IMG/VR virus record: IMGVR_UViG_3300027819_000006
DNA length: 64,000 nt
From: a virus
Lineage: Duplodnaviria; Caudoviricetes
Reading direction: 5' to 3' (one strand)
How positions within the stretch are numbered: the first letter of the stretch is position 1; each line of letters opens with the position of its first letter. A model generated the notes under the pieces. That model did not search any database. It was not told where the DNA came from and saw nothing but the letters and a program-made list of their open reading frames with translations. Both the position numbers and the translations under genes were made by a program. This document shows, piece by piece, positions 305 through 59,452 of this stretch.

Positions 305-1999
305 TTACAAAAGCCATCTAAATTCATTTATTGTATCTATTGCGCTTTTATGTTGCAATGGAACTTTTCTTATTACACCAGTATTTGCATCTTTTATTTC
401 ATGTTCTGTGCTCATTACAGAAGCGAAAGATTTAGATTCTTGTCTAAAACTATTTACTAGAGTATGTTGCATTTCTATTGAATTATTGAATTTGACTCCA
501 GCATTTCTAGCATACATTCCAATTCCCAGCGACATGACTAAATCGTCATGAGCATCTTCAGATGCCTGTGGTTTGCCATATAGCATGATAAATGTTTTTA
601 GTTCTTCTAATACTCTGTTAGAGTGCAATATAATTTCTTTATTTCTTATATCTTCTTGCATTTTTGCGATCATTACTGGTCTAGTCTTGCCACTTGTAGT
701 GAAACCAGCAACAGCATTTTTAGAATATATGTCAATAAATTCTTCATCAGTATTCATGTTGACTACAGATAAAGAATCTCTTCTTTTAGAATAGTATACA
801 TTAGGATATTCAGCTTGTATAATATCTTCTAATACTCCAAGACCGTAGCTATTATTTTCTACTACTAATGTTGCTTCATTATATTCTCTACCTACTTCTA
901 TTAACATTTGAGCAAATAGTTCTGGTACAATTTTGCCTTTATATTCTGCTACTTGTTCATATTCTTCTAATTCTATTACGTGAAAAGCTGAAAAATCTGA
1001 AGAATCTCCTTTAGCAACGTCTGCAGATATTGTATATTGTTTGCCAAACTCTGGATCTTTCCAAACCCATAGATGGTTGTCTATTCCTTTTTTGTATAGT
1101 GGGTCTCTGATATATAGTTGGCCTTCACAGAAAGGGTCAAATGATTCTTTGTACCATATTAATGATTTTGGATCAAAAACAGAATTGCCAGACATCAAGA
1201 AATCTGCATCTTGCTCTTGTGCGAAGGCTTGCTCACCGATCTTCGCCTTCATTTCATCAGCCCAAGCTTGATTTCTATCTGGATGATTTTTCCAAGATAA
1301 TCTTATTGGATTGAAAAATTGCAATTTATTTCCTATTTGAGTTTGTATTCCAGATTCTGCTTCTATATATTGATTATAAAACCAACCATTAGCTCCATTT
1401 GGAGTAGACAATATAATACAATCTCCACCAGTAGATAATGTTGGTTGAGCAGATGTCCAAATGGTACGAAAATTTTTTACAAATGCGCACTCGTCTACTA
1501 CTAAAAGACTCAAAGCTTCAGATCTTGCTGCGTCTTTTGTGGTAGAAGAAGCTTGAGCTTTTGATCCATTAGCTAATGCAACAGATTGTACATTTTTTGT
1601 TTTTTGTTCTGGCTTTAACCATTCTGGTAGTTCTTCTAAAAATACCTTTATCTTTGATACAAGATTTGTTGCAACAGATGATTTAGTTGCTACTATATAT
1701 ACTTCTTTGTTAGCAAAAAAGGTTATTAACCAAGCAATATATCCTGCCACTAAAGTAGATATTCCTAATTGTCTACCTTTAAGTATTATATTATATGAAT
1801 GCTCAACAAATGCATTGATACATTCTTTCTGAAAATCCCAGAGAGCAAAGTCAATTAATCCTTTTGTGGGATGGCGCACTTTTCCATAATTTTCAAGAAA
1901 ATAGATGGGATTTTCTCGACATTTTATGTATTCTTCTAATTCTGAATTGTTCATAGAATATTCACTTCTTACATAATATAAATATAATTTGCAAAACAA
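305..1999 (-). CDS. Terminase large subunit (T4 gp17-like)
   Basis: ATPase motifs KGRQLGIST and LLVVDECAF, coupling motif STPNG, nuclease motifs ISADVA and HDDLVMS. True start is probably the internal MNNSEL. Confidence 0.93.
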   Translation of the reverse strand: MFCKLYLYYVRSEYSMNNSELEEYIKCRENPIYFLENYGKVRHPTKGLIDFALWDFQKECINAFVEHSYNIILKGRQLGISTLVAGYIAWLITFFANKEVYIVATKSSVATNLVSKIKVFLEELPEWLKPEQKTKNVQSVALANGSKAQASSTTKDAARSEALSLLVVDECAFVKNFRTIWTSAQPTLSTGGDCIILSTPNGANGWFYNQYIEAESGIQTQIGNKLQFFNPIRLSWKNHPDRNQAWADEMKAKIGEQAFAQEQDADFLMSGNSVFDPKSLIWYKESFDPFCEGQLYIRDPLYKKGIDNHLWVWKDPEFGKQYTISADVAKGDSSDFSAFHVIELEEYEQVAEYKGKIVPELFAQMLIEVGREYNEATLVVENNSYGLGVLEDIIQAEYPNVYYSKRRDSLSVVNMNTDEEFIDIYSKNAVAGFTTSGKTRPVMIAKMQEDIRNKEIILHSNRVLEELKTFIMLYGKPQASEDAHDDLVMSLGIGMYARNAGVKFNNSIEMQHTLVNSFRQESKSFASVMSTEHEIKDANTGVIRKVPLQHKSAIDTINEFRWLL

Positions 2000-2022
2000 A
2001 AAAGTACAATATCAGAAAACAC

Positions 2023-2056
2023 AAAAAGAGCCCCATAAATTAATATGGAGCTCTTT
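2023..2056 (-). terminator. Rho-independent terminator
   Basis: Hairpin AAAGAGCTCCAT..ATGGGGCTCTTT followed by T-run, downstream of the MoxR gene. Confidence 0.7.
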
Positions 2057-2083
2057 GATATTCTATTATAATCTATTTTCTAT

Positions 2084-3340
2084 CTACTTCTTCACAAAGT
2101 GTCTCTGTGCAATTTCTTTTACGATATTTCGATCATCTGTATCAAGCCGTGCATATACCACATTTTCCAGTGCTGTCTTCAATCCCCATTCATTGATCTT
2201 TTTTACAAACATCTTGAGTCTGCGAGTAGAGATTGTGCTAATGATATTTTCTGAAGCATTTGACTTGCGGACATCTAAAATGAATTCCATGATCCTCAGA
2301 GGTGTCACATCTGAAGGTTCATTCAGAATTGCTGTCACAATGTCAATTTCTTTATTTGTATATGACATTTCGAAGAAAGCATTGAACCTGTCAAGAAATG
2401 CTTCATTCAACTGAACTGTGCCTGCAAATTTCTGCTGATTCTCACCAAGTCCAAGAGTATTTGCAGTAGCAAGTACAGCAAAACCATTAGTGGGAGTCAA
2501 GACTTCTCCACCATTATCCATCAGTACGAGCTTTGCATTGTCGTCATCGAGTATAGAATGCAGAGCTGTCAGATAATGTGGGGGAGCAGAATCAATCTCA
2601 TTTACAATGATTGGAGCACCCAGCTTTATAGCCTGAGGAAAAATTCCATAAGCAAACTTTGTAATGTTTCTTCCATTCTCATCTACTGTAGCTTCTTTTG
2701 TTCCAAGAAATGTTGCCTCATCTACTCCTTGAGAAAAATCAATGTCAAAAGGATAGACTCCATCAACACAGAACTGAGGATACATTTCCTTGACAAGCAT
2801 TCTCAGAGCTGTAGTTTTACCACAGCCTGCAGGGCCATAGATATAAACGTGTTCACCATTCTCTACGCATTGCTTGATGTTATTGTAAAACTTTGGAAAA
2901 TAAAATTTGTTAGCATTCTCTTTCTTTATAGCTGTTTTTTCAAGGACAGAAATCAGATCTTCTTTAACCTGTTCAGGAGCAATCTCTACACCTTCAGAAT
3001 TAGTAGGGACAGTAGCAATGATTTTGTCAAAGTCACCAGCATTTATTTTATGGAAATTGCTGGGTATTGTCAGATGAACTGAATCTGTAAATTTTGCAAG
3101 TGGCTGAATCATGAAACCTTTGTACAATCTAGACCTGCTTATAGCTAGACTGTTATGGTTTTTGAGATTTTTACCAACTTTTGGACTAAAAACATTCCTG
3201 TACTTGAACCTATTATTGAGTGAATACTCGCAAATGAAGAATTCTCCATTTGCTTCTGGTATAGCTAAATTCAGCTTGCTATAGACATCAGAGATTTGAA
3301 TTGCCAGTTCTCTAGCAGCATATTTGTCGAATCTAGACAT
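2084..3340 (-). CDS. MoxR/CbbQ/CobS-type AAA+ ATPase
   Basis: Walker A GPAGCGKT, Walker B IVNEID, ATANT, LNEAFLDRF, ISTRRL. Confidence 0.9.
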   Translation of the reverse strand: MSRFDKYAARELAIQISDVYSKLNLAIPEANGEFFICEYSLNNRFKYRNVFSPKVGKNLKNHNSLAISRSRLYKGFMIQPLAKFTDSVHLTIPSNFHKINAGDFDKIIATVPTNSEGVEIAPEQVKEDLISVLEKTAIKKENANKFYFPKFYNNIKQCVENGEHVYIYGPAGCGKTTALRMLVKEMYPQFCVDGVYPFDIDFSQGVDEATFLGTKEATVDENGRNITKFAYGIFPQAIKLGAPIIVNEIDSAPPHYLTALHSILDDDNAKLVLMDNGGEVLTPTNGFAVLATANTLGLGENQQKFAGTVQLNEAFLDRFNAFFEMSYTNKEIDIVTAILNEPSDVTPLRIMEFILDVRKSNASENIISTISTRRLKMFVKKINEWGLKTALENVVYARLDTDDRNIVKEIAQRHFVKK

Positions 3341-3379
3341 TTGAAGAATCTCCTTTGTTTGTAGTAACCATCATTTTGT

Positions 3380-3416
3380 AATGGTTAAATATAAACAATC
3401 TATGTTAGAAAGTAAA
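3380..3416 (-). promoter_or_regulatory. Sigma70-like promoter, repeated motif copy 1
   Basis: TTTACT-17 nt-TATATT followed by TAACCATT. Near-identical copies at 5175, 36968 and 63075. Confidence 0.75.
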
Positions 3417-3421
3417 ACGTT

Positions 3422-5149
3422 TTATGATAAAGATGCAATTAATTTATTCTTGAGATTCTTCAAAAATGATTCTTCAAGATTTTCTACATCTTTTGCATAT
3501 ATAGAATTTTCTTTTCCATAATATTTTTCAATTTTTGTTGACCCACCAAATCCGAATGCAAATAGTTCAATATCAGTTTCATTCATGATTTTATTTACTA
3601 CATGCTTCAGATAATCATGTAACATAATTTTGCTATACTTTTCATTTATAACACCTTGTGGAGTTCCATCTGACAGTACAAATAGAATTTTTTTGTCTAT
3701 AGGACTAGAATTCTTCAACAAATGTTTTGCTGCATATTCAACAGATTCTCCATCATTATTTTCTGTGCTGCTTGGCAAGCCAGGTATTTGAAATTCATAA
3801 TCTGCATGATGAGCAAGTGCTTGAGACATGACATTGGAAATTGCAGAATCAGAATATTTGTCTTTGAAATCATGCATTATTTCATAAAACTTGGGATAAC
3901 AAGAAACATAATTCTTTGATTTGTGACAATGTTTGAATATCCAATCTCTATCTGGATTATCACTCGAAAATCCAATAACAGAAAATTCAATGCCGAGCAT
4001 AGACAAAGACTTGGAAATTATTTTAGCAAGATACAGAGCATTATAGAACCTGCTTTTACCATTTGTTTCTCGAGCAACCATTGAACCTGACATATCTACA
4101 AGAATAACAACTTTTGCATGTATTTTTTCTGTATTCACAACTTTATAGAATGGTGCATCTGTCAAATTGCAAGAAAACAACCCTAACTTGTTTTTAGCAA
4201 TTCTCTTACCTTTTTTGAAACCAGAAAATTTGAATTTGCTAGTCTTTGACCTCAGAATTGTAGCCATGATCTTTGTCATAGTACTTAGTTTAGAATTATT
4301 AGACTTGAATTGATTAGATACAGCATCATTCTTCTTGTACTTGTAGATATAGTCTCCGTCTGTATAGTTAGTAAATTTAGATATCTTCATTGAAGACTTT
4401 GAAATTGTCTTTATATCTTCTGATAATATAGTTTCTATAAGTTCTTTCTCTATATCTTTAGCTATAGCTTCAAGTTTTGTATTAATAAGACTAGTTTTAG
4501 ACTCATCAGAATCAGTTCCGGGAACTGGTTTCATAGAAATTCTTGTGACATACTTCTGTTCCTGCTCTTCCATTTTAATCTTGTCTTTGATAAATTCATA
4601 AATTTCTTTTGAGACATTGTAGACGTCTTGCAAATTTTTGGCCTTTGAAGCCTTGTCAAAATATGGCGAAAGCTCTGAATAGGCTTTCTCTACATCTTCT
4701 GGCAAGTCAAATTTAAAATGTGTTCTGTACATGTATGAAGAAATAGCATTTGCATATTCTGCGCCATCAGTTTTAGTTTCTTTTTCAAGCTTGTGTAAAT
4801 ATTCATTTAAATACTCTTCTCTGAGTGAATAAATATTCAGAGTTTCTCCAGGCTTATCTTGAATTGCATCAATTCTTGCATCTTCCAAACAATTACAGAT
4901 CTGCTTCAACAGCATATTTTTTTTGAACTCTGGAATATAGTCGTTCCATCCGAATGTATACCTCTTGTGTCGAACCTCATGATCAACAAAACCTCGAACC
5001 TTTTTGATATCTTTGTCTGAAATCTCTAGATCATTGATCTGCGGCAAGTGAATGATGTCTTTTTCATCAATATATGCTCCATCTTCTGAATCCCAGTAGA
5101 CTTCTGTATTATCAAGGTTTGCAATTGCTTCTGTTCTTGATTTCCACAT
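3422..5149 (-). CDS. CobT-like protein with N-terminal metallopeptidase-like HExxH and C-terminal vWA domain (MoxR partner)
   Basis: DHEVRH, NCLEDARI, MIDAS DMSGSM, NNDGESV, LFVLSDG; adjacent to the MoxR gene. Confidence 0.85.
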   Translation of the reverse strand: MWKSRTEAIANLDNTEVYWDSEDGAYIDEKDIIHLPQINDLEISDKDIKKVRGFVDHEVRHKRYTFGWNDYIPEFKKNMLLKQICNCLEDARIDAIQDKPGETLNIYSLREEYLNEYLHKLEKETKTDGAEYANAISSYMYRTHFKFDLPEDVEKAYSELSPYFDKASKAKNLQDVYNVSKEIYEFIKDKIKMEEQEQKYVTRISMKPVPGTDSDESKTSLINTKLEAIAKDIEKELIETILSEDIKTISKSSMKISKFTNYTDGDYIYKYKKNDAVSNQFKSNNSKLSTMTKIMATILRSKTSKFKFSGFKKGKRIAKNKLGLFSCNLTDAPFYKVVNTEKIHAKVVILVDMSGSMVARETNGKSRFYNALYLAKIISKSLSMLGIEFSVIGFSSDNPDRDWIFKHCHKSKNYVSCYPKFYEIMHDFKDKYSDSAISNVMSQALAHHADYEFQIPGLPSSTENNDGESVEYAAKHLLKNSSPIDKKILFVLSDGTPQGVINEKYSKIMLHDYLKHVVNKIMNETDIELFAFGFGGSTKIEKYYGKENSIYAKDVENLEESFLKNLKNKLIASLS

Positions 5150-5174
5150 TTTGAAGTTCCTTTCATTATTTTGT

Positions 5175-5211
5175 AATGGTTAAATATAAACAATTTAGCC
5201 ATAAAAGTAAA
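5175..5211 (-). promoter_or_regulatory. Sigma70-like promoter, repeated motif copy 2
   Basis: TTTACT-17 nt-TATATT-TAACCATT upstream of the vWA gene. Confidence 0.75.
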
Positions 5212-5212
5212 C

Positions 5213-5247
5213 AAAAAAGAGCAAACCACTAAAAAATAGTTTGCTCA
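5213..5247 (-). terminator. Rho-independent terminator
   Basis: GAGCAAAC/GTTTGCTC stem followed by T-run on the minus strand. Confidence 0.65.
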
Positions 5248-5269
5248 TTAAAATAGTATGCAACAAATA

Positions 5270-5605
5270 TTAAATTTTTACAGGCCAGCGTGCTCTAAAT
5301 CCTCTTTTTGATATCAAAACATTAGTTATTCTATCAACTAAAAATTTCTTTATGCTCTGCTTTTTGCCAGGAGTTATGTCATAAGCATACAGATAAACTC
5401 CATATTCTCCAATTTTCATTTCGTAGGGTTCAGTTATGCGTAAGCTTGCTGCACCGGACAGCTTTGTATAATTGATATTGATTATCTTCACTTTACTCAA
5501 AGCTTGTCTTATATGAGCTACTATAGCATCAGACTTCATAGTTCCCGGAGTTCTTTCAAACCAGTCTGTAGCTTCTGCAAGATGCTGCTTGTCTATACTG
5601 TTCAT
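5270..5605 (-). CDS. WYL-domain protein
   Basis: ININY..., RITEPY, YLYAYD, KKFLVDRI match the WYL pattern. Confidence 0.75.
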   Translation of the reverse strand: MNSIDKQHLAEATDWFERTPGTMKSDAIVAHIRQALSKVKIININYTKLSGAASLRITEPYEMKIGEYGVYLYAYDITPGKKQSIKKFLVDRITNVLISKRGFRARWPVKI

Positions 5606-5625
5606 TTATTGGAACTCCATTTTAT

Positions 5626-6375
5626 CTAATTTTTGTTTGATACATAAAATAAAGCTATATTTTTGATAAATTCTGCTGCTTTAATAGCATAATAATTGTC
5701 AGTTTCAACAATAACTTCATGACGATTATTATGTTTTAAAATATCTTTTAAATTACTATAACCATCAAAATGCAACTCTAATGCTTCTTTAATTTCATTA
5801 TATATCACATAAATATTAAAATTTAAAATAGTAGCGGGCTTTTTATATTCTTCCTCATGTTTTTCTATATATTCAATAATATCTTTTATCGTTTTTTCTT
5901 CAAATTTTTTATCTTGTTTGCATTTATCTATTAATTTTTGAAATATTCTATTGTGCAGCGTATAAAAATCATCAGTATGTTTTGATTGAAAGTATTTTGA
6001 TCCATCAATTGGGAATACAATATATGGATCACCATATCCAAAACTAACTGTTGCAGATGTATTTATTATACTTGTGTAGCAGAATATACTTTTTTGTCTT
6101 GATGGCAAATGTGAATAATGATTAATTCTATAATATTCTATAAACTCATCTATTCTACTATCAGTATCTATCAACTTTCTTTTACCATTTTTATGTATTT
6201 TATAAGCATTTGAATTTATTCCAGCTGACCTTCTCAATCCTCTAATCAGACATCTATCTATTTCATTAAATGCGTTATAAGCTTCTGAACAATATGTTTT
6301 AACATGAGTGGCAAATTTAGATATCGATATCATTTCATATGTAATGTTTTCTTTTAGTAGCGAAGATAATTTCAT
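5626..6375 (-). CDS. Hypothetical protein, possible ADP-ribosyltransferase-like fold
   Basis: LIRG, SIFCYT, PYIVFP and HEVIV spacing resembles ART strands; MKLSSLLKE leader. Confidence 0.4.
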   Translation of the reverse strand: MKLSSLLKENITYEMISISKFATHVKTYCSEAYNAFNEIDRCLIRGLRRSAGINSNAYKIHKNGKRKLIDTDSRIDEFIEYYRINHYSHLPSRQKSIFCYTSIINTSATVSFGYGDPYIVFPIDGSKYFQSKHTDDFYTLHNRIFQKLIDKCKQDKKFEEKTIKDIIEYIEKHEEEYKKPATILNFNIYVIYNEIKEALELHFDGYSNLKDILKHNNRHEVIVETDNYYAIKAAEFIKNIALFYVSNKN

Positions 6376-6376
6376 A

Positions 6377-6640
6377 TTAATCGTCTAATAAACTATACTG
6401 CGAGAACAACTGAATCAAATCTTTCTCAGTATGTATATTCAGCAGGTCTCCAATAAAAAATTTGACTGAATTAAAGTTCCAGCCCTTTCCAATCAATCTT
6501 CCAGTGATCAGTCCTTTATACTTACTAACAGCTGTAATGTTATCTTTTTGCATTGAGTTCACATATCTTATACATAGTCTCTCAATATCAGACATTGAAT
6601 CTTGAATTTCTATTGTTTCGGCTACTGTTCTTAATTTCAA
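6377..6640 (-). CDS. Hypothetical protein
   Basis: ORF coupled to its neighbours; MKL start. Confidence 0.55.
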   Translation of the reverse strand: MKLRTVAETIEIQDSMSDIERLCIRYVNSMQKDNITAVSKYKGLITGRLIGKGWNFNSVKFFIGDLLNIHTEKDLIQLFSQYSLLDD

Positions 6641-7284
6641 GTGTTTTCTCTATTTAAATCTATCATTAATTCTTCTTTTCTGATAATTTTTGTATCTTCT
6701 GAGAATACTAAAATTTCTTTCTGCTCTTCGTAAGCTATTTCTTCTTTGTGTATAGAATATTGATTTTGACCATACTGATAATATTTCCTCAAACAGCCAA
6801 TCACTTCAACAAATAGCTCTATTAATTCAGAATATGTTCTATTTTCTTTATGATTTTTTACTATATTTTCTAAAAAATCAGTTTTAGCTAATTGTTTCAA
6901 AATATTGTGCACAACTACTATATTTCCATTCATTTTAGCTAAATTTTTACAGATAATGAAACCATAGCTCTTATTGAAAGTTTTATTCAGCTGTTCAGGT
7001 TTTAATATGCTAAAAGAAACAGGCTGAAAGTTTAGATTATGAAAACCTATAGTATGTATATCTTCAATAAATTTAGCATATTCTTTTTCTATTAGATCGA
7101 ACCATCTGTAAACAATCAAATTTTTAGGAAGTTTTATACTAAATTTAGAGCTTGCAACAAGACTTTCATGTCTGAGTATATTTGATAAAGCTCGTCTTCT
7201 TTCTTCGCTGAAAGAATAGACATATTCCAATATTATGTATAGAGCATTTATATCATTGCTGTATAATATATCTTTCAGTTTCAA
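6637..7284 (-). CDS. Hypothetical protein, possible ADP-ribosyltransferase-like (R-S-E) fold
   Basis: LIVYRW, VSFS, EEQKEILV; MKLKDIL leader with TTG start. Confidence 0.45.
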   Translation of the reverse strand: MKLKDILYSNDINALYIILEYVYSFSEERRRALSNILRHESLVASSKFSIKLPKNLIVYRWFDLIEKEYAKFIEDIHTIGFHNLNFQPVSFSILKPEQLNKTFNKSYGFIICKNLAKMNGNIVVVHNILKQLAKTDFLENIVKNHKENRTYSELIELFVEVIGCLRKYYQYGQNQYSIHKEEIAYEEQKEILVFSEDTKIIRKEELMIDLNRENT

Positions 7285-7487
7285 AATTTATCTCTATTTA
7301 AACATTCCATTACATATTCAAAAGCTTTTTCTAGTTCTTTAGCAGCAACTTCAGGTTTAGCATTTATCTTTTTAGCTAATTTGAAACAAGGGTATGAAAA
7401 ATCCCCAAATTTATTCCTTAATTTAGGATCATTTTCTTTTATATCATTCAAAACACTATTAAAATCTTCTTCTATAATATAACTAAT
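7281..7487 (-). CDS. Short ORF resembling the arginyl-tRNA synthetase N-terminal domain (not in ORF track)
   Basis: Open frame ISYIIEEDFNSVLNDIKENDPKLRNKFGDFSYPCFKLAKKINAKPEVAAKELEKAF.... Start uncertain (ATT 7487 or TTG 7451). TGA overlaps the next TTG. Confidence 0.55.
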   Translation of the reverse strand: MSYIIEEDFNSVLNDIKENDPKLRNKFGDFSYPCFKLAKKINAKPEVAAKELEKAFEYVMECLNRDKF

Positions 7488-7537
7488 TATAGTTGTTCTA
7501 TAAATATAATGGAGCTGATAAAAATTGCATCTATTAT

Positions 7538-7882
7538 TGGTGGACCTGGAGAATATCGAAATTCTCGTGTAGTCTATGCTACATAAAAATTGTATTGTAC
7601 ATGCTTTTGCAAATTCTAATTTTTCATTCTGTTATAAAGAATTAGCAAAGTTTATAACAGAATTATTCTTTCTATTTATTAAAAGAAGTGTTCTTATCAG
7701 ATATGAATGATGCTATTCTATTTCCTATCTGCAAAATTTAGATAGCATAGCTGTTTAGCTCTTAAGCAGCTAGTTTGTATTGATTTTTGTCAATTACTAT
7801 TTTGCTGTAAGTTTAAAGAGTTTATAGCAAACTCTGCATGCAATTCTTACTTTACATACCTATCGATTCCAATTTCAGGCCC
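7538..7882 (-). ncRNA. ssrA: tmRNA (complete), tag (A)DKNQYKLAA
   Basis: 5' GGGCCTG pairs with 3' CAGGTCC-ACCA with a G3.U pair; AATCGATAGG D-loop region; GCATGC and AAGCATGTA; T-arm GAGAAT-TTCGAT-ATTCTC; tag ORF GAC...GCT GCT TAA at 7762-7791. Confidence 0.92.
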
Positions 7883-7889
7883 AAAATCT

Positions 7890-8201
7890 TTCCTACTACA
7901 TGCTTTTTGTAGAATTCTACATTTCAACAATATTTTGAATCCCTACAAAGTATAATATTATTGAATTAGATTGATTTCATTTGCATCTATCTAACCAATC
8001 AATGCAAATTATCTCATTTAAATGATATCTCAGTAAAATCTATGAGATAAGACTTTATAGAGACAAGCAGTTTAATCTCCTAAGCTGCTAGTTTGTAGCT
8101 TTGATTGTCATTTAAGACTTTAATCAGCTTTTAACGAAGCCTCTGATTAACTTCGGCATGCAATCATACTAATTATTATCCAGTCGATTATAATCGCCCC
8201 C
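7890..8201 (-). ncRNA. ssrA: Second tmRNA lacking T-arm and 3' acceptor strand, tag (A)DNQSYKLAA
   Basis: 5' GGGGGCGATTATAATCGACTGG; pseudoknot CGAAG/CTTCG plus TTAATCAG/CTGATTAA; tag ORF at 8080-8109; AAGCATGTAG, then runs directly into the next tmRNA 5' end. Confidence 0.8.
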
Positions 8202-8253
8202 GTTATTTTTGATTTGTGTTGATATTTACTTCTGATAGCTTCAAGTTTGTTCT

Positions 8254-9804
8254 CTAAATAAGTACAGTATTTCCATTTGAGTTCAGAAATGTTGTAGTCT
8301 TTTCTGGTCCTTTTGATTCTAATCTTACAGGATTACTCCACAATATAAATATACTGTTGAGAACCTCTTTAGTATCAGCTATATCTAAAGTAATATCTTT
8401 ATCTGTATTATGTTTTAGCAACAGAGTTCCATTTCTACCATAGTTCATATCTACTACTTCTAGATTCGGCCTACCATGATTTGTTAACATGAATAATAGT
8501 TTTTGTTTCACATCTTTGAATTCTTTTGAAGATATTTGATATGTTATACCTTTTGGATCACCTTCTGCAGGTTCAGCTTTTGATTTATCTATTGTAAAAA
8601 GTTTCAGCTGAACACAAAGTTCTCTTGTAAAAAATTCATCTATGAACTCAACATCATTATAATATTTTCTAACTTCAAATATCTTTTCATGTCCAATATT
8701 CAGCTTCTTGTCCCAGTTCTTTTTTGTCTTGTAATCATCACATTCTTCCCATTCTCTGCCGAACTGTCCTTTATTCCATCTTTCTTCAATATCATTCCAT
8801 ATTTCTAGACCTAGTTTGTATGGATTCAAAGATCTAGATGATCCCATGGTGGCAGCATGATGCTCAGCATAATCTATAATTTCTGAATCGTCAAGAATTC
8901 CTCTTTTTGTAAGAATATGACTATGCCAATAACTTGCCCATCCCTCATTCATAATTTTCGTCATTCCTTGTGGAGCAAAGTAATATGCCTCTTCTCTGAT
9001 CATAGACATAATATTTCTCTGCCACTGTTTCATCGGAGCATGTTCAATCAGAAATAGAAGGAGATCTTTATAGGGTTTCTTAAGACTTTTTGCTTCCTCT
9101 TCTTCAAGTTCTTTCTTCTTTTCTTTTTTAAGTTTTTCAATTTCATCATCAGGATTAACAAATTTGTCCATATAAAATTTATCTGCAGAAACTTTAATTC
9201 TGTCTATATTCTGAGATTCTAAATCTATGTTCTTGTCTTCTTGTTCTTCTGGTGCTTTACTCTTTGCCATTAATATTTCATGTCTATCAATGTGTTGTTC
9301 TAAACTTGAGCAGATATCAATGAAATCTTCTACTTCTTTTTCTCCATATAGATCTATATATTGACTTACAATCTTAGCATGATTGCTGAATTGATTGATC
9401 ATTTTTCTATCTGTATTGGAAAACCAGATATTGTTTTTAAAGAAATCAGCATGTCCATAGACATGAGCCATAACTAATTTCTGATCTACTAATGTATTAT
9501 TTGTCATTAGATATGCATATACAGGATCTGTATTTACAACCATCTCTGATATTTTAGATAGACCGTAAAAATATTCTTTGTACATATGAGAATATGATTG
9601 TCCAAATTCCCAGTGAGAATATCTTTCCATGAAACCTGTTCTTGCAGCTATCTGATAAAGATCATCTGGTGAAACCATTTCAAAGACAGTTTTAAAAAAA
9701 TCAAGCTTTTCTTCTATAGCGATATCTTCTATTTTATATTTCCATTCTTTAAGATAATAAGGAAATTTTATTACTTGATCAAATTTATTATATGATTTTT
9801 CCAT
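8254..9804 (-). CDS. spoVR: SpoVR/YcgB family protein
   Basis: HWEFGQSY, SKISEMVVNTDP, AHVYGHADFFKNN, TKIMNEGWASYWH, LNPYKLG. Confidence 0.95.
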   Translation of the reverse strand: MEKSYNKFDQVIKFPYYLKEWKYKIEDIAIEEKLDFFKTVFEMVSPDDLYQIAARTGFMERYSHWEFGQSYSHMYKEYFYGLSKISEMVVNTDPVYAYLMTNNTLVDQKLVMAHVYGHADFFKNNIWFSNTDRKMINQFSNHAKIVSQYIDLYGEKEVEDFIDICSSLEQHIDRHEILMAKSKAPEEQEDKNIDLESQNIDRIKVSADKFYMDKFVNPDDEIEKLKKEKKKELEEEEAKSLKKPYKDLLLFLIEHAPMKQWQRNIMSMIREEAYYFAPQGMTKIMNEGWASYWHSHILTKRGILDDSEIIDYAEHHAATMGSSRSLNPYKLGLEIWNDIEERWNKGQFGREWEECDDYKTKKNWDKKLNIGHEKIFEVRKYYNDVEFIDEFFTRELCVQLKLFTIDKSKAEPAEGDPKGITYQISSKEFKDVKQKLLFMLTNHGRPNLEVVDMNYGRNGTLLLKHNTDKDITLDIADTKEVLNSIFILWSNPVRLESKGPEKTTTFLNSNGNTVLI

Positions 9805-9806
9805 AT

Positions 9807-10931
9807 CTAGTTGCCCTTTCCCAGCATGCTATGTATAACATTATAACAATCATTTCTAGAACTAGCTTTTGTCATTACAGTTTTTTCTTTAAACTCTTTA
9901 TCTTCGCCAAATTTACCAATTAGATGATCTGAAAAATTTTTATAATTTGACATATAAGAATATTGACCAGAAAGCATGCATAAACTTAGCTGATTTACAT
10001 TCGGAAGTATACTTTCTAATATTATTTTTGCTGTCTCTTCATCGTCTTCAGAATTCCAATTTTGATAATCTCCAAAATAAGCACAATAAATATTCCAATC
10101 AACTGAAGGATAAAATGTTCTCATTCTATCATCTAATATTTTAAATGCGCTTGAAATTAATGTTCCGCCTCCAGGAGTTAATTTATAAAATCTCTCCTTA
10201 TCAACTTCTGCAGCTTCTGTATCATGTAAAATATATCTAATATCTACATCATGATAAAACTTTTTTAACCATATTTCAATCCAATAGCATATTGTTTTTA
10301 CTATATCTAATTGTTCATCTGTCATAGAACCGGATACATCCATCATGTAGAATATGACAGCATTATTCATAGGCATAGGTTTAGTTTTCCAAGATTTATA
10401 TACAACATCATCTGTATAAGGTATTATTCTCGGAGATATTGGATTATATTGATTAGATTTAAGTTGTTTAAGAATAGTTTTAAGAATAGTTCTTTTTTTG
10501 TGTCTTAATGTTCGAGGTCCAGTAGAAGCAACAGTATTATATTTGTTTTTATAACCCTTCATCATTCTCTTGCCTTTTGGTAAAATATTAGGCAATGCTA
10601 ATTCTTCTCCTAACATCTCAGCTAATTCTTCTATATTCAATTCTGCATATTGTGAATGTCTGCCTTTTTCGTTACTAGCTTTACCTATTTCTTCTTCATC
10701 TGGATCAAAATCGACTATATCACCAACTTCTCCATCACCTCTACCAACAGAGCCAACTTCTCCTTTACTATATTTTATAGTAGGAATATGAATAGATTCA
10801 ATTGGAATTTTTATGGAATCTTTACCTCTAACAGAATTTATCTCACCATTAATAACTTTCTTTATCTTATCTTTGGCATTCTCACGCAATTTTTTTCTAA
10901 ATCTATCAGCGTCTTGTAAAGTTGAACCCAT
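9807..10931 (-). CDS. yeaH: YeaH/YhbH (DUF444) vWA-domain protein
   Basis: GRGDGEVGD, AVIFYMMDVSGSM, GGGTLISSA; lies between prkA and spoVR. Confidence 0.93.
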   Translation of the reverse strand: MGSTLQDADRFRKKLRENAKDKIKKVINGEINSVRGKDSIKIPIESIHIPTIKYSKGEVGSVGRGDGEVGDIVDFDPDEEEIGKASNEKGRHSQYAELNIEELAEMLGEELALPNILPKGKRMMKGYKNKYNTVASTGPRTLRHKKRTILKTILKQLKSNQYNPISPRIIPYTDDVVYKSWKTKPMPMNNAVIFYMMDVSGSMTDEQLDIVKTICYWIEIWLKKFYHDVDIRYILHDTEAAEVDKERFYKLTPGGGTLISSAFKILDDRMRTFYPSVDWNIYCAYFGDYQNWNSEDDEETAKIILESILPNVNQLSLCMLSGQYSYMSNYKNFSDHLIGKFGEDKEFKEKTVMTKASSRNDCYNVIHSMLGKGN

Positions 10932-10953
10932 TATTTATATCTCTCTTAAACGT

Positions 10954-12945
10954 TTATGAAGTCACTTTTGGATTTGACCTACTCATGATAGAACTTACGA
11001 AATTCAAACTATCAGTTGCACAATTATCGCAATAACCATATTCACTAATTAATCTTCCTTTAACTATATCTATTTTAGCTTGAGTATCTGAATCTACTAC
11101 ACCCGTAACAAGCTGATTAAGTTTAATTGTGTCTTTCTGATCTTCAAACAATTTCAGTTCAAGAGCCATTTGCAATCTTGGATTAGACTTATAATCAAAT
11201 TTCTTTCCGTCTACAGCTAACCCTCCAATATAGTTCATGATTGCAAGTCTGAAATCTCCTTTTCTTTCATCTGGAATATCAATTTTTTCTTCAATTGCTC
11301 GCATCAATCTTTCATCTGGCTCTTCATCTTTACCAGTATATTTATTTTTAACCTTTTCTTTTGAAGTGAAAGCTTTAATATTGTCGATATAATTCTGACA
11401 AATTCTAGCTAAACCTTGATCATCTGCTGCAATAGCTCTCTGAACTTCTCTTTTTACAATGTATTCATACTCTTCTTTTACATCATTTAATAAAGCTCTA
11501 AATTTCTTTCTTGTTTCTGGAGATGAAGTAAGTGAATAAATATCTAAACCTTTGTCTAATTCATTCATTACCATGAATGGGTTAATACATTTGAATTCTG
11601 AATTAACAATTGCATTTGAAATCTTATCTTGAATATATCTTGGAGAAATCCCTTCCATACCTTCTCTAGATTCTGCTTGCATCATTTCTTTTACATGATC
11701 TTCTGTAAATCCAGGTAAAGTTTTACCATTATACAATTTCATTTTCTGTACAATTGATAATTTACCACCTTCAGGATCTCTCAGTCTTGTCAAAACTGAC
11801 CACATTGCTGCAACCTCTAAAGTATGTGGAGCAATATGAGGATCTTTCATATTTTTAAATCTTTTTTCATAAATTTTCATTTCAGAATCAAGAATCTTAA
11901 TATATGGAATATCTACTCGAACAGTTCTATCTCTTAAAGCTTCCATACTCTCGTTTTTTTGCAGGTTTACGAAATCGGAAGCATTACAATGTCCCAAAAT
12001 TACTTCATCAATATCAACATGACTAAATTTCTTGGGTTTTATCTTATGCTCTTGTGAAGCAGTTAATAGATCATAAAGGAATGCTACATCTAATTTGAGA
12101 ACTTCAATCATTTCAATCATACCTCTATTTGCTACACAAAATTCTCCATCAAAGTTGAATGCTCTTGGATCAGAATCTCTACCATATTCAGCAATTTTTC
12201 TATAATCAATGTCTCCAGTTAACTCTGTAGAGTCTTGATTCTTTTCATCTTTTGGTTGAAATGTAGCAATTCCTATTCTATCATCTTCTGAAAATACATA
12301 TTTGAATACTTTAATATGATTGTCATAAATTTTTTCCACATCTCCGCTATATTTAGTCATCAGTTCATTGAAATAAAATCTGCATAAAGGACATAGATTA
12401 CCTAAAGATTTTCCAAATCCAAAAGTTTCTCTATGCTCTAATGGAATTAGATGTAGAGGATCTTCGTGCATTGGACAGACTACTTCAGTCTTATTTTCAT
12501 CATCTAATATCCATTTGAATGAATATACAGCTCCATCATCTTTCTTGCTGTATTCTTGAAGTCCCTTCTTCATTAGTCTAGCAATAGTAGATTTAGATGA
12601 TCCTACTGGCCCATGTAATAGAAAAATTCTACTTTCTGTACCATAACTATTCGCAGCAGATTCAACTAGCTTTACAAGCTTCATTAAATGGGGATCTATT
12701 CCATATACTGCATCTAGACCATCTTCCATAGGATCATCAAAGAAATTATAATGAATTACTCTTTCTTTAAAATGAGTATATTCATTAGTCCCATGAGATA
12801 AAATCATGTCAAACATTCTCTGAAATGCATTTCTATATAACTTTGGATTTTCTTTACATAGATCTATATAATTATTGAAACTCCCCTCCCAGTGCTCCCT
12901 ATCATACTTTGTCTGTTCTAACGCTGAGATAGATTTAAAATCCAT
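10954..12945 (-). CDS. prkA: PrkA/YeaG AAA-type serine kinase
   Basis: [54 protein letters not shown]. Confidence 0.96.
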
Positions 12946-12970
12946 TTTGTTTCACTTTCTCCTATTTTTA

Positions 12971-13669
12971 TTATATGAACTGCTCTATGTAATTTCTATC
13001 TTCTGTGAATATTGGAATTTCATTATCTATTTTCCAATAACCTTCTATTTTAAAACAACACGCTCCTCTTTTAAAACTTGTTATTTCTTTTTCCCAACAA
13101 ACATCAACATCTTCTAATAGCATCTGTTTGACTTCTTTTGTGCTCTTGCTATCTAATTGTTTGTGAGAAAAGTGTTTCTGTCCTAAACAATTTATACTAT
13201 TTCTTTCACAGTCTTTCTGTCTCCAAATGAAATAATTGCAAACTTCTTCTTTGGGTAGAGAAAATACTCTGCAGTCAAAGAAAGCTGTTTGTAGTGGTAC
13301 TTTTAATTTAATAGGTTGCAAATATATATTTGCATAAGCTGTACATAATGAAGCTGCTACAGAAACTATCTTTTGAATATTACCACCAAACCACTGTTCA
13401 GTTTCAAATGTTTCATAGTCTGTCAACAATAAAGAAATTTCATCTGATTGAGTATAAGCTAATTTACAGTTCTGAACTTCACCACACAAATCTAATATTG
13501 TATATTTGAAAGCATTCATTAGATCTTCGTCATACGGCTTTTTCAGATGCTTTGTAAATGTATGGAAAGCCTTGCCATCCAATCTGATAATTGCTGGCAT
13601 TCTTGGAATTAGACGTTGTTCAGTGAAACATTTCTCAAATTTCTTCATGCGATCTGCGATATTTATCAT
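12971..13669 (-). CDS. thg1: tRNA-His guanylyltransferase Thg1-like protein
   Basis: IIRLDGKAFHTFT, YTQSDEISL, FDCRVF, YFIWRQ.D..RN. Confidence 0.93.
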   Translation of the reverse strand: MINIADRMKKFEKCFTEQRLIPRMPAIIRLDGKAFHTFTKHLKKPYDEDLMNAFKYTILDLCGEVQNCKLAYTQSDEISLLLTDYETFETEQWFGGNIQKIVSVAASLCTAYANIYLQPIKLKVPLQTAFFDCRVFSLPKEEVCNYFIWRQKDCERNSINCLGQKHFSHKQLDSKSTKEVKQMLLEDVDVCWEKEITSFKRGACCFKIEGYWKIDNEIPIFTEDRNYIEQFI

Positions 13670-13677
13670 AAAAACTC

Positions 13678-14454
13678 CTATGGATTGAATCTACTACCCC
13701 AATTATTATGGATTTCTTTATGACACTTCCTGCAAAGTATTAATCCATTCAATAAGTTTTCATCTTTTATTCTATCACAATTAGCTAAATAAGCAGCTTT
13801 ATCATCGTCACAATCGAAAACAATATTACATTTTGCTAATTCCTCTTTTATTAATATGACCATAGGAACTATATGATGAGCATCTAATTGTTCTTTGCTT
13901 CCGCATTTTGAACATTTATCATATGCAGCATACATTTTATTGTACCATTTAAATCTTCTACTGACTTCTATTTTAACTTTAACTGTTAGAGTGTGAAATC
14001 TACCACCTTTCCATGCAGTAGCATTTTTGCCGGTCTTGCCTGTTCTCGATATAGACATTTTATTCCTAGTAGCTATAGAATGTTTTTTATGATACATACT
14101 ATTTTTAGGACCAGATGTATCTCTAATTTTTATAGCATTTTGATATTTTTCTGAATTTCTTACAGCATTTCCATGTTCTTTCTTTTTTTCATCAGTCCAA
14201 AATGCTTTAGTTCTTTGAGGAGGATGATTTATGGGAACTATTTTTCTATAACATGGCTGGCATATATCTATATGAGATTGTCTATTTATTTTATTTCCAC
14301 ATTCACACATCATATTATTTCTACAGGGTCCACATATTTCGTATCCACATCTTATAGAATCTTCTTTTAATTCATTATTACAGCTGCGTATTTCACATTT
14401 CATTTTTATCTCCTTGAATATAATAAATATACTCAAGAGAGACAAATGAATCAA
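13678..14454 (-). CDS. HNH homing-endonuclease-like protein with NUMOD3-like motif
   Basis: KKHSIATRNKMS, CSKCG...HHI...LCRKCHKEIH. True start is probably MKCEIR. Confidence 0.8.
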   Translation of the reverse strand: MIHLSLLSIFIIFKEIKMKCEIRSCNNELKEDSIRCGYEICGPCRNNMMCECGNKINRQSHIDICQPCYRKIVPINHPPQRTKAFWTDEKKKEHGNAVRNSEKYQNAIKIRDTSGPKNSMYHKKHSIATRNKMSISRTGKTGKNATAWKGGRFHTLTVKVKIEVSRRFKWYNKMYAAYDKCSKCGSKEQLDAHHIVPMVILIKEELAKCNIVFDCDDDKAAYLANCDRIKDENLLNGLILCRKCHKEIHNNWGSRFNP

Positions 14455-58052: not shown

Positions 58053-59452
58053 TCACCTCTATCTGCTTTGAAATCATCATAGAGCTTACCCAATTTTGCT
58101 CTAACAGTTTGTTGGGGATCTAAATATTCTGAACTACTCTGATCTTGTCCTTGTTCATTGATTTCATTAGTTATATCTATAAAGCTTGTAGCTGTATCTA
58201 TAAAAACATTATATATCTGACCATCTTTACCGATTCTATTTTTAGCAATATATAGTTTGCCATGATTTGTCAATTTATCTTTCAGACTTCTTGAAAAACT
58301 CATTACGAAATCTGCAACTTGAGCTTTAGCATAAGATTCACCAATTCTGTCTAAAGTTATTATTTCCTCATTATTTCCCATCCTATTACTCTGAGAAGCA
58401 CTCAAGATTGGGAGTTGCAATTCACCAGACATCCTTCTCAAATCTTCATATATTGCCTCTACTTCAAATCTTTTCTGTTCATATCCCCTTTTTGAAAGCA
58501 TTAAATCTGCATAATCTACAATCACTAATCCTGGTTTAAAACCCGATGAAAGCAATCTTCCTAAGTGAAATCTAAGAGTATTTACAGTAGCAGATTTAGT
58601 AGGATATTCTTTAATAATTAATTTGCCACCTTTAAACTGACTTAATTTTTCTTCCGCTTCTTCAGCTCTTTCTCTGATTTTCTTTATCGGAATTCCTGTA
58701 ATTCTTGCATCATATCTATTTCCAATATTTCTTTCAGATAATTCAAAACTATAATGAACTACATCTATACCAGCTTTCAGAGCACCATATCCAAGATTAA
58801 TTAACCAGAAACTTTTGCCCCCACCAGTTGGAGCTAATATTATAGCAAGTTCTCCTCCAGCAAATCCACCATCTAGACAATCTATATCATCTAGTTGTTT
58901 GAATCCTGTAGGTACTGCTTTTCTAATATTTATTTGAGTTCTAATATTCAACCCTTCAAAATAATCATGCCCTAAATCTATACTTGTTCCAATTTTTAGA
59001 GCATCTTCTACTGTCTTGAATATTTTTTCAAATCTTGAATCATCACCAGTTTTCAATAAATCAACAGATCTTAATATAGCATGTTCCATTGATTTATTTT
59101 TGCAGAATTCAAAAACTTTATCTTTAGTCTGTTCTAATTCTTTTACATTCACTTTATGCTCTATATCAAATAGAGCTTTTAAAATCAATTCTTTTAGATC
59201 ATCATCTGGATAATATGCTATTTCTACTTTTACTGCATCAAATGTTGGTAAACATTGATATTTTTCGTAGTACTTTTTAATCTCATTCCATATTACTTTA
59301 TGAGGTTCAGATCCAAAATATTCAGATTTTAGAACTTCATATACATTATCAAAAAATTTAGCATCTGTTAGTGCACTTTGTAAAGTTTTTGTTTGAAAAT
59401 CAATTCCAAACATTGAAAATGTATCATAGTGGTTAGACATCAAGTTCTCCAA
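58049..59452 (-). CDS. dnaB: DnaB-like replicative helicase
   Basis: APTGGGKS, SFELSE, IVDYADL, SASQSNR, AKNRIG. Confidence 0.93.
   Translation of the reverse strand: MENLMSNHYDTFSMFGIDFQTKTLQSALTDAKFFDNVYEVLKSEYFGSEPHKVIWNEIKKYYEKYQCLPTFDAVKVEIAYYPDDDLKELILKALFDIEHKVNVKELEQTKDKVFEFCKNKSMEHAILRSVDLLKTGDDSRFEKIFKTVEDALKIGTSIDLGHDYFEGLNIRTQINIRKAVPTGFKQLDDIDCLDGGFAGGELAIILAPTGGGKSFWLINLGYGALKAGIDVVHYSFELSERNIGNRYDARITGIPIKKIRERAEEAEEKLSQFKGGKLIIKEYPTKSATVNTLRFHLGRLLSSGFKPGLVIVDYADLMLSKRGYEQKRFEVEAIYEDLRRMSGELQLPILSASQSNRMGNNEEIITLDRIGESYAKAQVADFVMSFSRSLKDKLTNHGKLYIAKNRIGKDGQIYNVFIDTATSFIDITNEINEQGQDQSSSEYLDPQQTVRAKLGKLYDDFKADRGD

Follow-up and report, generated by a model that had tools for sequence, protein, structure and literature searches.

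A T4-like jumbo phage from groundwater carries a tmRNA locus composed of three parts: the 5' body of one tmRNA gene (A), a complete tmRNA gene (B) and a tmRNA 3'-end stub. The three-part layout follows from the finding that an orphan 8-mer past the complete gene is a real T-arm and acceptor stub. We consider it probable, with modest confidence, that B is the phage's working gene and that A and the stub are the remains of a second allele left by recombination, A being uncharged. Most likely, the locus is the scar of one tmRNA version replacing another and not a new two-gene system. The whole stretch of DNA that was analysed, 64,000 nucleotides long, is called the window throughout.

Genomic setting of the tmRNA locus

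The window derives from the genome of an uncultured phage, and the longest contig carrying a neighbouring ORF measures 271,876 bp. The public runs that contain this DNA are groundwater metagenomes, with no RNA run among those listed. The terminase of this phage has at most 42% identity to any GenBank phage terminase. The features of the window that are relevant here all lie on the minus strand:

305-1999 (-): large terminase
around the tmRNA locus (-): CobS- and CobT-like genes
around the tmRNA locus (-): Thg1-like gene
7281-7451 (-): 56-aa ORF, fragment of an ArgRS N-terminal domain (Pfam PF03485)
7510-7534 (-): tmRNA 3'-end stub, as read from the sequence
7538-7882 (-): tmRNA B, a complete one-piece gene (RF00023, fold and counterpart in the relative L002)
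7883-7891 (-): spacer AAAGAUUUU, 9 nt, the upstream flank of B, which aligns with AAAGAAUUAU ahead of the L002 tmRNA
7892-8201 (-): tmRNA A, approximately the first 85% of a second one-piece tmRNA gene (RF00023 local match)
8202-8253 (-): spacer of 52 nt from the SpoVR stop codon to A, without a convincing promoter
8254-12945 (-): PrkA-YeaH-SpoVR operon

Between positions 7200 and 8400, five promoter-like sites were found against 7.7 expected, and neither the promoter nor the terminator scans rose above chance. No integrase was found among the ten large ORFs from 305 to 14454, and the tmRNA locus itself contained no nuclease, no integrase and no clean direct repeat marking an insertion. Direct repeats of 10-14 nt inside the locus occurred at about the level expected by chance for AT-rich DNA. 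No SmpB gene was seen among the annotated ORFs of the window.

The 56-aa ORF that follows the locus starts with TTG and matches PF03485 with 24.7 bits over profile positions 31-65 of 85. Comparison with longer proteins gave no match. The ORF is part of window-specific DNA past the stub and has no counterpart in the closest relative, L002. It lies right after the tmRNA locus and may represent a gene fragment that was captured or, alternatively, a mini tRNA-binding protein. The flanks of B are a patchwork of fragments, namely A, the stub and the ArgRS N-domain fragment.

Several other elements near the locus were recorded. A 14-nt direct repeat, TATTTA(G/T)AGAACAA, occurs at 8247-8260 and 7493-7506 (13 of 14 positions identical), with one copy at the SpoVR stop codon and the other just past the stub, so that the two bracket the entire tmRNA locus; its frequency is near chance in this AT-rich DNA, and its placement is striking. 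A 215-aa ORF (6637-7284, minus strand) had zero sequence relatives among 5.8 billion proteins, and its Atlas model suggests a weak structural likeness to ADP-ribosyltransferases (TM 0.45-0.49). Meanwhile, a 249-aa protein family (window 5626-6375, minus strand; L012 10129-12390; L002 731-1120; L011 16958-17182) occurs in several copies in the phage genomes of this clade, including three tandem paralogues in L012.

Agreement between assemblies

The arrangement could in principle have been produced by an assembler that joined two tmRNA alleles of co-existing phage strains; mis-assembly had already been named as a concern by the sequence-only reading of this DNA. The metagenomic source would allow for this, as would the short identical stretches that A and B share (11 nt or less). 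These stretches are, however, shorter than assembly k-mers, and the identical join was recovered in three assemblies, namely the window, a 78-kb Logan contig and the JGI contig L164. Logan contigs from two groundwater runs (78 kb, depth ~18.6, even) cover positions 7000-9000 without a difference, joint or variant, while L164 (12.7 kb) matches at 100% identity across 5397 nt, a stretch that contains the entire locus. These additional assemblies are separate from that of the window but may share its site. With three assemblies agreeing on the join at the contig level, an artefact is extremely improbable.

The complete gene B and its relatives

Gene B matched RF00023 over its full length (Infernal/Rfam, model positions 1-374) with 56.7 bits, which passes the gathering score of 47. 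This agrees with the earlier description of a complete tmRNA at 7538-7882 with a G3.U pair, an encoded CCA and the tag (A)DKNQYKLAA. The acceptor stem, GGGCCUG/CAGGUCC, comprises 7 bp including G3.U, the T arm reads GAGAA-UUUCGAU-(A)UUCUC, and ACCA is encoded, so the CCA end is present. The tag frame at 7762-7791 reads DKNQYKLAA*; the stop codon sits in the loop of the hairpin UAGCUG/CAGCUA, after pk1 and a tag with an xLAA tail. The fold of B has a z of -4.8. The best reading of these features is that B is the phage's working tmRNA gene, with charging, SmpB binding and tagging as predicted activities.

Of the tools that had been proposed for checking the two genes, Infernal recovered both (B above the gathering score, A by local search only). 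ARAGORN called neither, and it also missed the tmRNAs in most relatives. Several IMG/VR phages (L174-L177, L180, L181 and L185) have a tRNA-Ala(UGC) that closely resembles B in its acceptor end and T loop, GGGCUUG...UUUCGAU...CAGGUCCACCA.

Contigs of relatives were fetched through their SpoVR homologues. In the closest of them, L002, SpoVR is 81% identical at the protein level and 78% at the DNA level. This contig encodes a single tmRNA, 80% identical to B and located ~3 kb downstream of SpoVR, and both A and the stub are absent from it. The window and L002 are homologous from ~9 nt before the tmRNA to 8-12 nt after it, and the genes flanking the tmRNA differ between the two on both sides. The more distant L005 and L012 have tmRNAs with GGGCCYG...CRGGUCCACCA ends directly after SpoVR. 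The identity of B to the sole tmRNA of L002, together with the matching ends after SpoVR in L005 and L012, indicates that B is the clade's resident tmRNA, the counterpart of the L002 gene, located in a variable slot. The idea of a replacement in progress comes near the best-supported reading in so far as a complete gene lies next to the remains of a different allele, with the correction that B, and not A, corresponds to the gene of the relatives.

Comparison of window 7538-7566 with L002:10855-10887 revealed T arms that are wholly different (GAGAA-UUUCGAU-UUCUC versus CCGC-UUGCAAUA-GCGG) between identical flanks, suggesting that the 3' end of this gene has itself undergone a swap.

Pattern searches of IMG/VR found no closer relatives of B, a SpoVR-based IMG/VR search returned no relatives, and no GenBank phage matched the locus in blastn. 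The arrangement of A, B and stub was found in one phage genotype only.

The truncated copy A

Gene A was detected with RF00023 by local search only (7892-8163, minus strand, model positions 43-322, 42 bits, E 4e-15), below the gathering score of 47. It is absent from the whole-window Rfam results, and model positions 323-374 are missing from it. A 5' acceptor strand, GGGGGCG, and a D-loop analogue lie at 8183-8201. The gene further contains the P2 5' strand, pk1 (8120-8156), a tag frame at 8080-8109 that reads DNQSYKLAA*, i.e., the tag (A)DNQSYKLAA, the stop-codon hairpin, pk2-pk4 and GCAUGUAGUAGG, with which the P2 3' strand begins. Its sequence stops short of the remainder of P2 (the P2a 3' strand) and has no T arm, 3' acceptor strand or CCA. 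A terminates with ...AAGCAUGUAGUAGG at 7892, and B starts 9 nt on.

What is present of A is well formed. Its pk1 stems are CGAAG/CUUCG and UUAAUCAG/CUGAUUAA, and the alignment of this pk1 family (17 sequences) is 95.5% paired, with seven pairs changed on both sides; A supplies two compensated pairs. The RF00023 match includes few non-canonical pairs, and the fold has a z of -3.9. The local match, the pk1 covariation and the tag together bear out the earlier claim of a divergent second tmRNA from 8201 to ~7890 with an intact pk1. A and B are only about 58-61% identical, which indicates that they are not the products of a recent duplication.

The 5' acceptor strand of A has no evident partner. 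GGGGGCG pairs with CAGGUCC of B at only 3 of 7 positions, and the initial observation that the two cannot pair was correct. Strict scans of the 64-kb window revealed no partner for GGGGGCG behind a T-arm-like hairpin. Likewise, no partner was found in the window for the P2a 5' strand of A, and whole-window Rfam searches (E up to 0.5) revealed no further tRNA-like elements. A loose scan for acceptor partners, with G.U allowed everywhere, produced only noise. The candidate ...UGCCCCCACCA at 58816 (+) was rejected, as it lies in a coding region, lacks a hairpin and is on the opposite strand.

Processing of the 5' end by RNase P and charging both need the tRNA-like domain, and these are established requirements of trans-translation. 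Lacking the T arm and the 3' acceptor strand, A would not have its 5' end set by RNase P, would not be charged by AlaRS and would not carry out trans-translation. As a recognisable tmRNA without one gene end, situated beside the intact B, it has the character of a tmRNA pseudogene or fragment, and we infer that it is a non-functional remnant on the precursor of B. A role as a decoy for SmpB or RNase P, which had been put forward as one interpretation, is unlikely because both recognise the folded tRNA-like domain, which A cannot form.

The 3' stub

The orphan CAGCTCCA that had been noticed about 20 nt past the complete gene was found at 7510-7517, 20 nt beyond the CCA of B, and it turns out to belong to a tmRNA 3'-end stub. 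This stub spans 25 nt (7510-7534, minus strand), equivalent to roughly the last 25 positions of the tmRNA model, and reads AUAGA-UGCAAUU-UUUAU-CAGCUCC-A. It comprises a 5-bp T stem (AUAGA/UUUAU), a T loop (UGCAAUU), an acceptor strand (CAGCUCC) and a discriminator A, which is followed by UUA and not by CCA. With 0.09 occurrences expected, the motif TGCRAWT-N8-YTCCA has a single match in the window, and it marks acceptor arms in ~19 of the fetched phage tmRNA loci. The T loop of the stub is identical to those of L140 and L163, two independently found phage tmRNA acceptor arms, and the absence of an encoded CCA is shared with many tmRNAs of their group. Collectively, these features indicate that the stub is a real tmRNA 3' end.

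The stub probably represents the second end of a displaced gene, derived from A itself or from an earlier 3' end of B. An origin from A agrees with the type of loop and with the lack of CCA, but not with the pairing, since the stub pairs with the 5' strand of A at just 5 of 7 positions, and joining A and the stub into one old gene would require two more changes. An older 3' end of B is favoured by pairing at 6 of 7 positions with the 5' strand of B and by a weak likeness to the 3' end of L002. It is also favoured by the T loops, as that of L002 contains UGCAAU while that of B is of the L005 type. Searches revealed no identical att-type repeat of a tmRNA 3' end here: CAGCUCC of the stub differs from CAGGUCC of B, and so do the T arms.

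Affinity of A to two-piece tmRNAs

The 3' half of pk1 of A, a 19-mer, is an exact match to at least 15 tmRNAs of aquatic myophage contigs from metagenomes and viromes, and the first 95-125 nt of A are 70-76% identical to those tmRNAs. A hence appears to belong to another tmRNA group than B. The term group is used loosely here, as the contig L183 combines B-like ends with an A-like pk1, indicating that tmRNA groups are not sharply separated.

Most of the genes resembling the 5' third of A are permuted two-piece genes, in which the acceptor piece lies 13-613 nt upstream of the 5' strand (mostly 13-20, in some cases ~600); the others are compact one-piece genes (L155, L156, L026). Short relatives of A (L021, L090 and others) were considered as acceptor-less RNAs, and this was rejected, as they are permuted genes with the acceptor piece upstream.

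These relatives raise the possibility that A is the coding part of a working split tmRNA, which would pair in trans with the stub or with a distant acceptor piece once B has been excised by RNase P and 3' trimming, and which would then be charged and add DNQSYKLAA. Two-piece tmRNAs are established in phages (PMC9004378), the relatives of the 5' third of A are mostly of this kind, some with an acceptor piece ~600 nt off, and the stub has the right architecture and is on the same strand. However, the acceptor piece of a two-piece gene lies upstream and carries the P2 3' strand, whereas upstream of A there is SpoVR coding sequence, with no acceptor piece and no YGYYYYY strand behind a minus-strand hairpin. 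The permuted two-piece model RF04321 scored 13.3 bits on A, and A runs through pk2-pk4 into GCAUGUAGUAGG, which is a one-piece topology, unlike a two-piece coding piece, which ends after the tag region. The stub pairs with GGGGGCG at 5 of 7 positions and lacks a P2 strand, so the two would be held together by four or five base pairs, and no other acceptor piece was found in the 64-kb window (out of a genome of ~272 kb). We regard a split tmRNA as very unlikely.

Some of the two-piece genes have features of their own. A permuted two-piece tmRNA with its pieces ~600 nt apart is present at L090:4888-5520 (minus strand), as well as in L153 and L161. The gap between the pieces in L090 contains an ORF for a 178-aa endonuclease (phrog_3322, E 7e-23), and the end of this ORF overlaps the 5' acceptor strand. 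The segment between the two pieces of this tmRNA gene seems to harbour a homing-type nuclease. In many aquatic myophage contigs (L142, L153, L158, L163, L152/L154, L144 and L145), a compact permuted tmRNA heads a tRNA cluster and abuts tRNA-Asn or tRNA-Glu. It is made up of the acceptor piece and, after 13-20 nt, a ~170-nt coding piece whose end is a conserved pseudoknot with ACCUUAUNACCCAA. In L144 and L145, the permuted tmRNA is followed by another pseudoknot element similar to this one.

Tag ends and exchange between A and B

The tag ends encoded by L002, L005 and L012 are YALAA, whereas B and A encode YKLAA by means of identical codons; the codon at position -4 is GCN in the former three and AAA in the latter two. 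The own relatives of A have tag tails of the ALAA type. B and L002 differ at 56 aligned sites, and A has the state of B at 32 of them and that of L002 at 10, whereas base composition predicts 15.5 and 15.4 agreements, respectively (permutation P < 5e-5, with no permutation reaching the observed excess). In its first 130 nt, A shares 61% identity with B and 50% with L002. Polarising the differences between B and L002 with L005 and L012 worked at the tag codon only, these outgroups being too distant elsewhere.

From these patterns, A and B appear to have exchanged short patches, the tag end being the clearest of them, by gene conversion while adjacent. Shared adaptation to a host with a YKLAA-ending tag fits as an alternative, and the excess of shared states could also have arisen from faster change in the L002 lineage. 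YKLAA tags were also found in one MAG each of Gammaproteobacteria and Verrucomicrobiia, as well as in another phage, and these carriers are too scattered for a host to be named from the tag. One of them, the uncultured marine Gammaproteobacteria MAG FRAM18_bin228, has two near-identical tmRNAs (L168:4256-4613 and L169:1674-2031) with the tag ANDNNYKLAA. The notion of A as an alternative-tag donor gains indirect support in a DNA sense only, from the tag end of B, which is now the YKLAA of A, and from the excess of shared states; tagging by A itself gains none.

The likeness between the two genes could alternatively reflect an old tandem duplication in situ, after which A lost its 3' end and L002 lost A. 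The tandem placement in the same orientation, 9 nt apart, the higher identity of A to B than to L002, and the tag end and stop-codon hairpin common to both genes all speak for such paralogues. The acceptor strands, however, differ at 4 of 7 positions, and a tree (poorly resolved) does not join A with B and L002. The additional likeness between A and B is also patchy, as expected of gene conversion. The foreign pk1 of A, with its exact 19-nt match to the other tmRNA group and its dissimilarity to B or L002, makes duplication in situ less likely, and we find this origin quite doubtful.

A third possibility is that A is kept as a functional RNA without a tRNA-like domain. Acting as a structured 5' leader, it might stabilise pre-tmRNA B or set its timing; it might also be a sponge for proteins with affinity for the mRNA-like and pseudoknot part (ribosomal protein S1, RNase R), or serve as a standing donor for tag exchange with B through gene conversion. 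The intact helices and tag frame argue for this, as does the tag end, which is the same as that of B while both are unlike those of their own relatives. The excess of shared states would imply long co-residence, and RNase P cleavage of B would free A with a defined 3' end. Yet A is not conserved in any other genome, including L002, a promoter or processing site for its 5' end is not evident, and a full-text literature search found no functional acceptor-less tmRNA. Moreover, a recent truncation would leave the structure equally intact. A functional A is therefore an improbable explanation, albeit one to bear in mind.

A model for the origin of the locus

Based on these findings, we postulate that the locus was formed by recombination between phage tmRNA alleles. 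This is suggested by the layout, by the patchwork of neighbours such as the ArgRS fragment and by the endonuclease ORF inside the related tmRNA of L090. During exchange between co-infecting phages, a complete tmRNA allele would have been inserted into another or joined next to it; alternatively, flanking pieces of another allele may have been captured around B. In the process, ~30 nt of P2 would have been lost. Today, B would be transcribed with or after the PrkA-YeaH-SpoVR genes, with its 5' end cut by the host RNase P, its charging performed by the host AlaRS via G3.U, and the host SmpB being used. A would form the 5' leader of pre-tmRNA B and then be discarded. The anatomy of the locus, the status of B as counterpart of the L002 gene, the different affinity of A, its lack of a partner in the 64 kb and the concordance of the three assemblies are observations; the sequence of events, the co-transcription, the gene conversion and a non-functional A are what we infer. 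Against this reading, A is very well preserved for a dead gene in its structure, fold and intact tag frame ending in YKLAA, which means that it is either young or kept.

A more specific scenario is selfish replacement, in which a complete tmRNA allele would have been written into the allele of another lineage by nuclease-driven end replacement, leaving a 5' body and a 3' stub. The broken copy would then have acted as a reservoir that rewrote the tag from YALAA to YKLAA via gene conversion. We put this forward tentatively, as a possible but unlikely course of events.

Comparison with known systems

tmRNA genes are known from ~2.3% of phage genomes (PMC9004378). Like the tmRNAs of the Bxz1 group, Bacillus phage G, Melnitz and the pelagimyophages (PMC4131195, PMC9004378), B is complete, and it resides in a large T4-like phage. 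A resembles the genes of the aquatic myophage group in its 5' third, permuted genes included; a permuted two-piece ssrA has been described for the OM43 phage Melnitz and for pelagimyophages (PMC9004378). Descriptions of those phages give one tmRNA gene each, whereas the window has a second, truncated gene of another group as well as a 3' stub. No paper on tandem or truncated phage tmRNA genes was found by full-text search.

tmRNA pseudogenes without one end are known in bacteria (PMC4131195). As in such pseudogenes and at the borders of bacterial islands, A lacks one end beside an intact gene, and the stub is a 3' fragment. Unlike in those islands, the genome is that of a lytic-type phage, the locus showed neither an integrase nor an identical att-type repeat, and the fragments derive from another allele and are not the duplicated end of the same gene. 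The mycobacteriophage DS6A carries a tRNA-like domain only, which has been proposed to inhibit the host tmRNA (PMC4131195, PMC11915505). A is likewise a partial, phage-carried tmRNA, hence the decoy idea, but it is the reverse of the DS6A element, which has the tRNA-like domain and no tag part; mimicry of a tRNA or titration of SmpB in the manner of DS6A is therefore not open to A.

The locus is also reminiscent of the tandem-duplication model for the permuted two-piece tmRNA (Keiler 2000, Sharkady and Williams 2004, as cited in PMC9004378), as it has two tmRNA units head to tail, one of them incomplete. That model needs the 3' end of the first copy together with the 5' part and body of the second. 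Here, the first copy has lost its 3' end, so the locus is not an intermediate of this permutation path. What stands out as unusual is the adjacency of alleles from two groups, the three-part scar and the apparent exchange of tags.

These findings have implications for annotation, as ARAGORN misses both genes and Rfam reports one only. They also raise the possibility that a phage re-tunes its degradation tag with sequence copied from a dead allele next to it, or that both tags are tuned to that of the host. Should A prove to be expressed as a stable RNA, it would be the first tmRNA-like RNA to have a role without an acceptor, a far more interesting outcome. If our main reading is true, the locus would represent a clear, datable case of phage tmRNA genes being swapped between lineages as sharp-bordered modules, the leftovers of which can persist next to a working gene.
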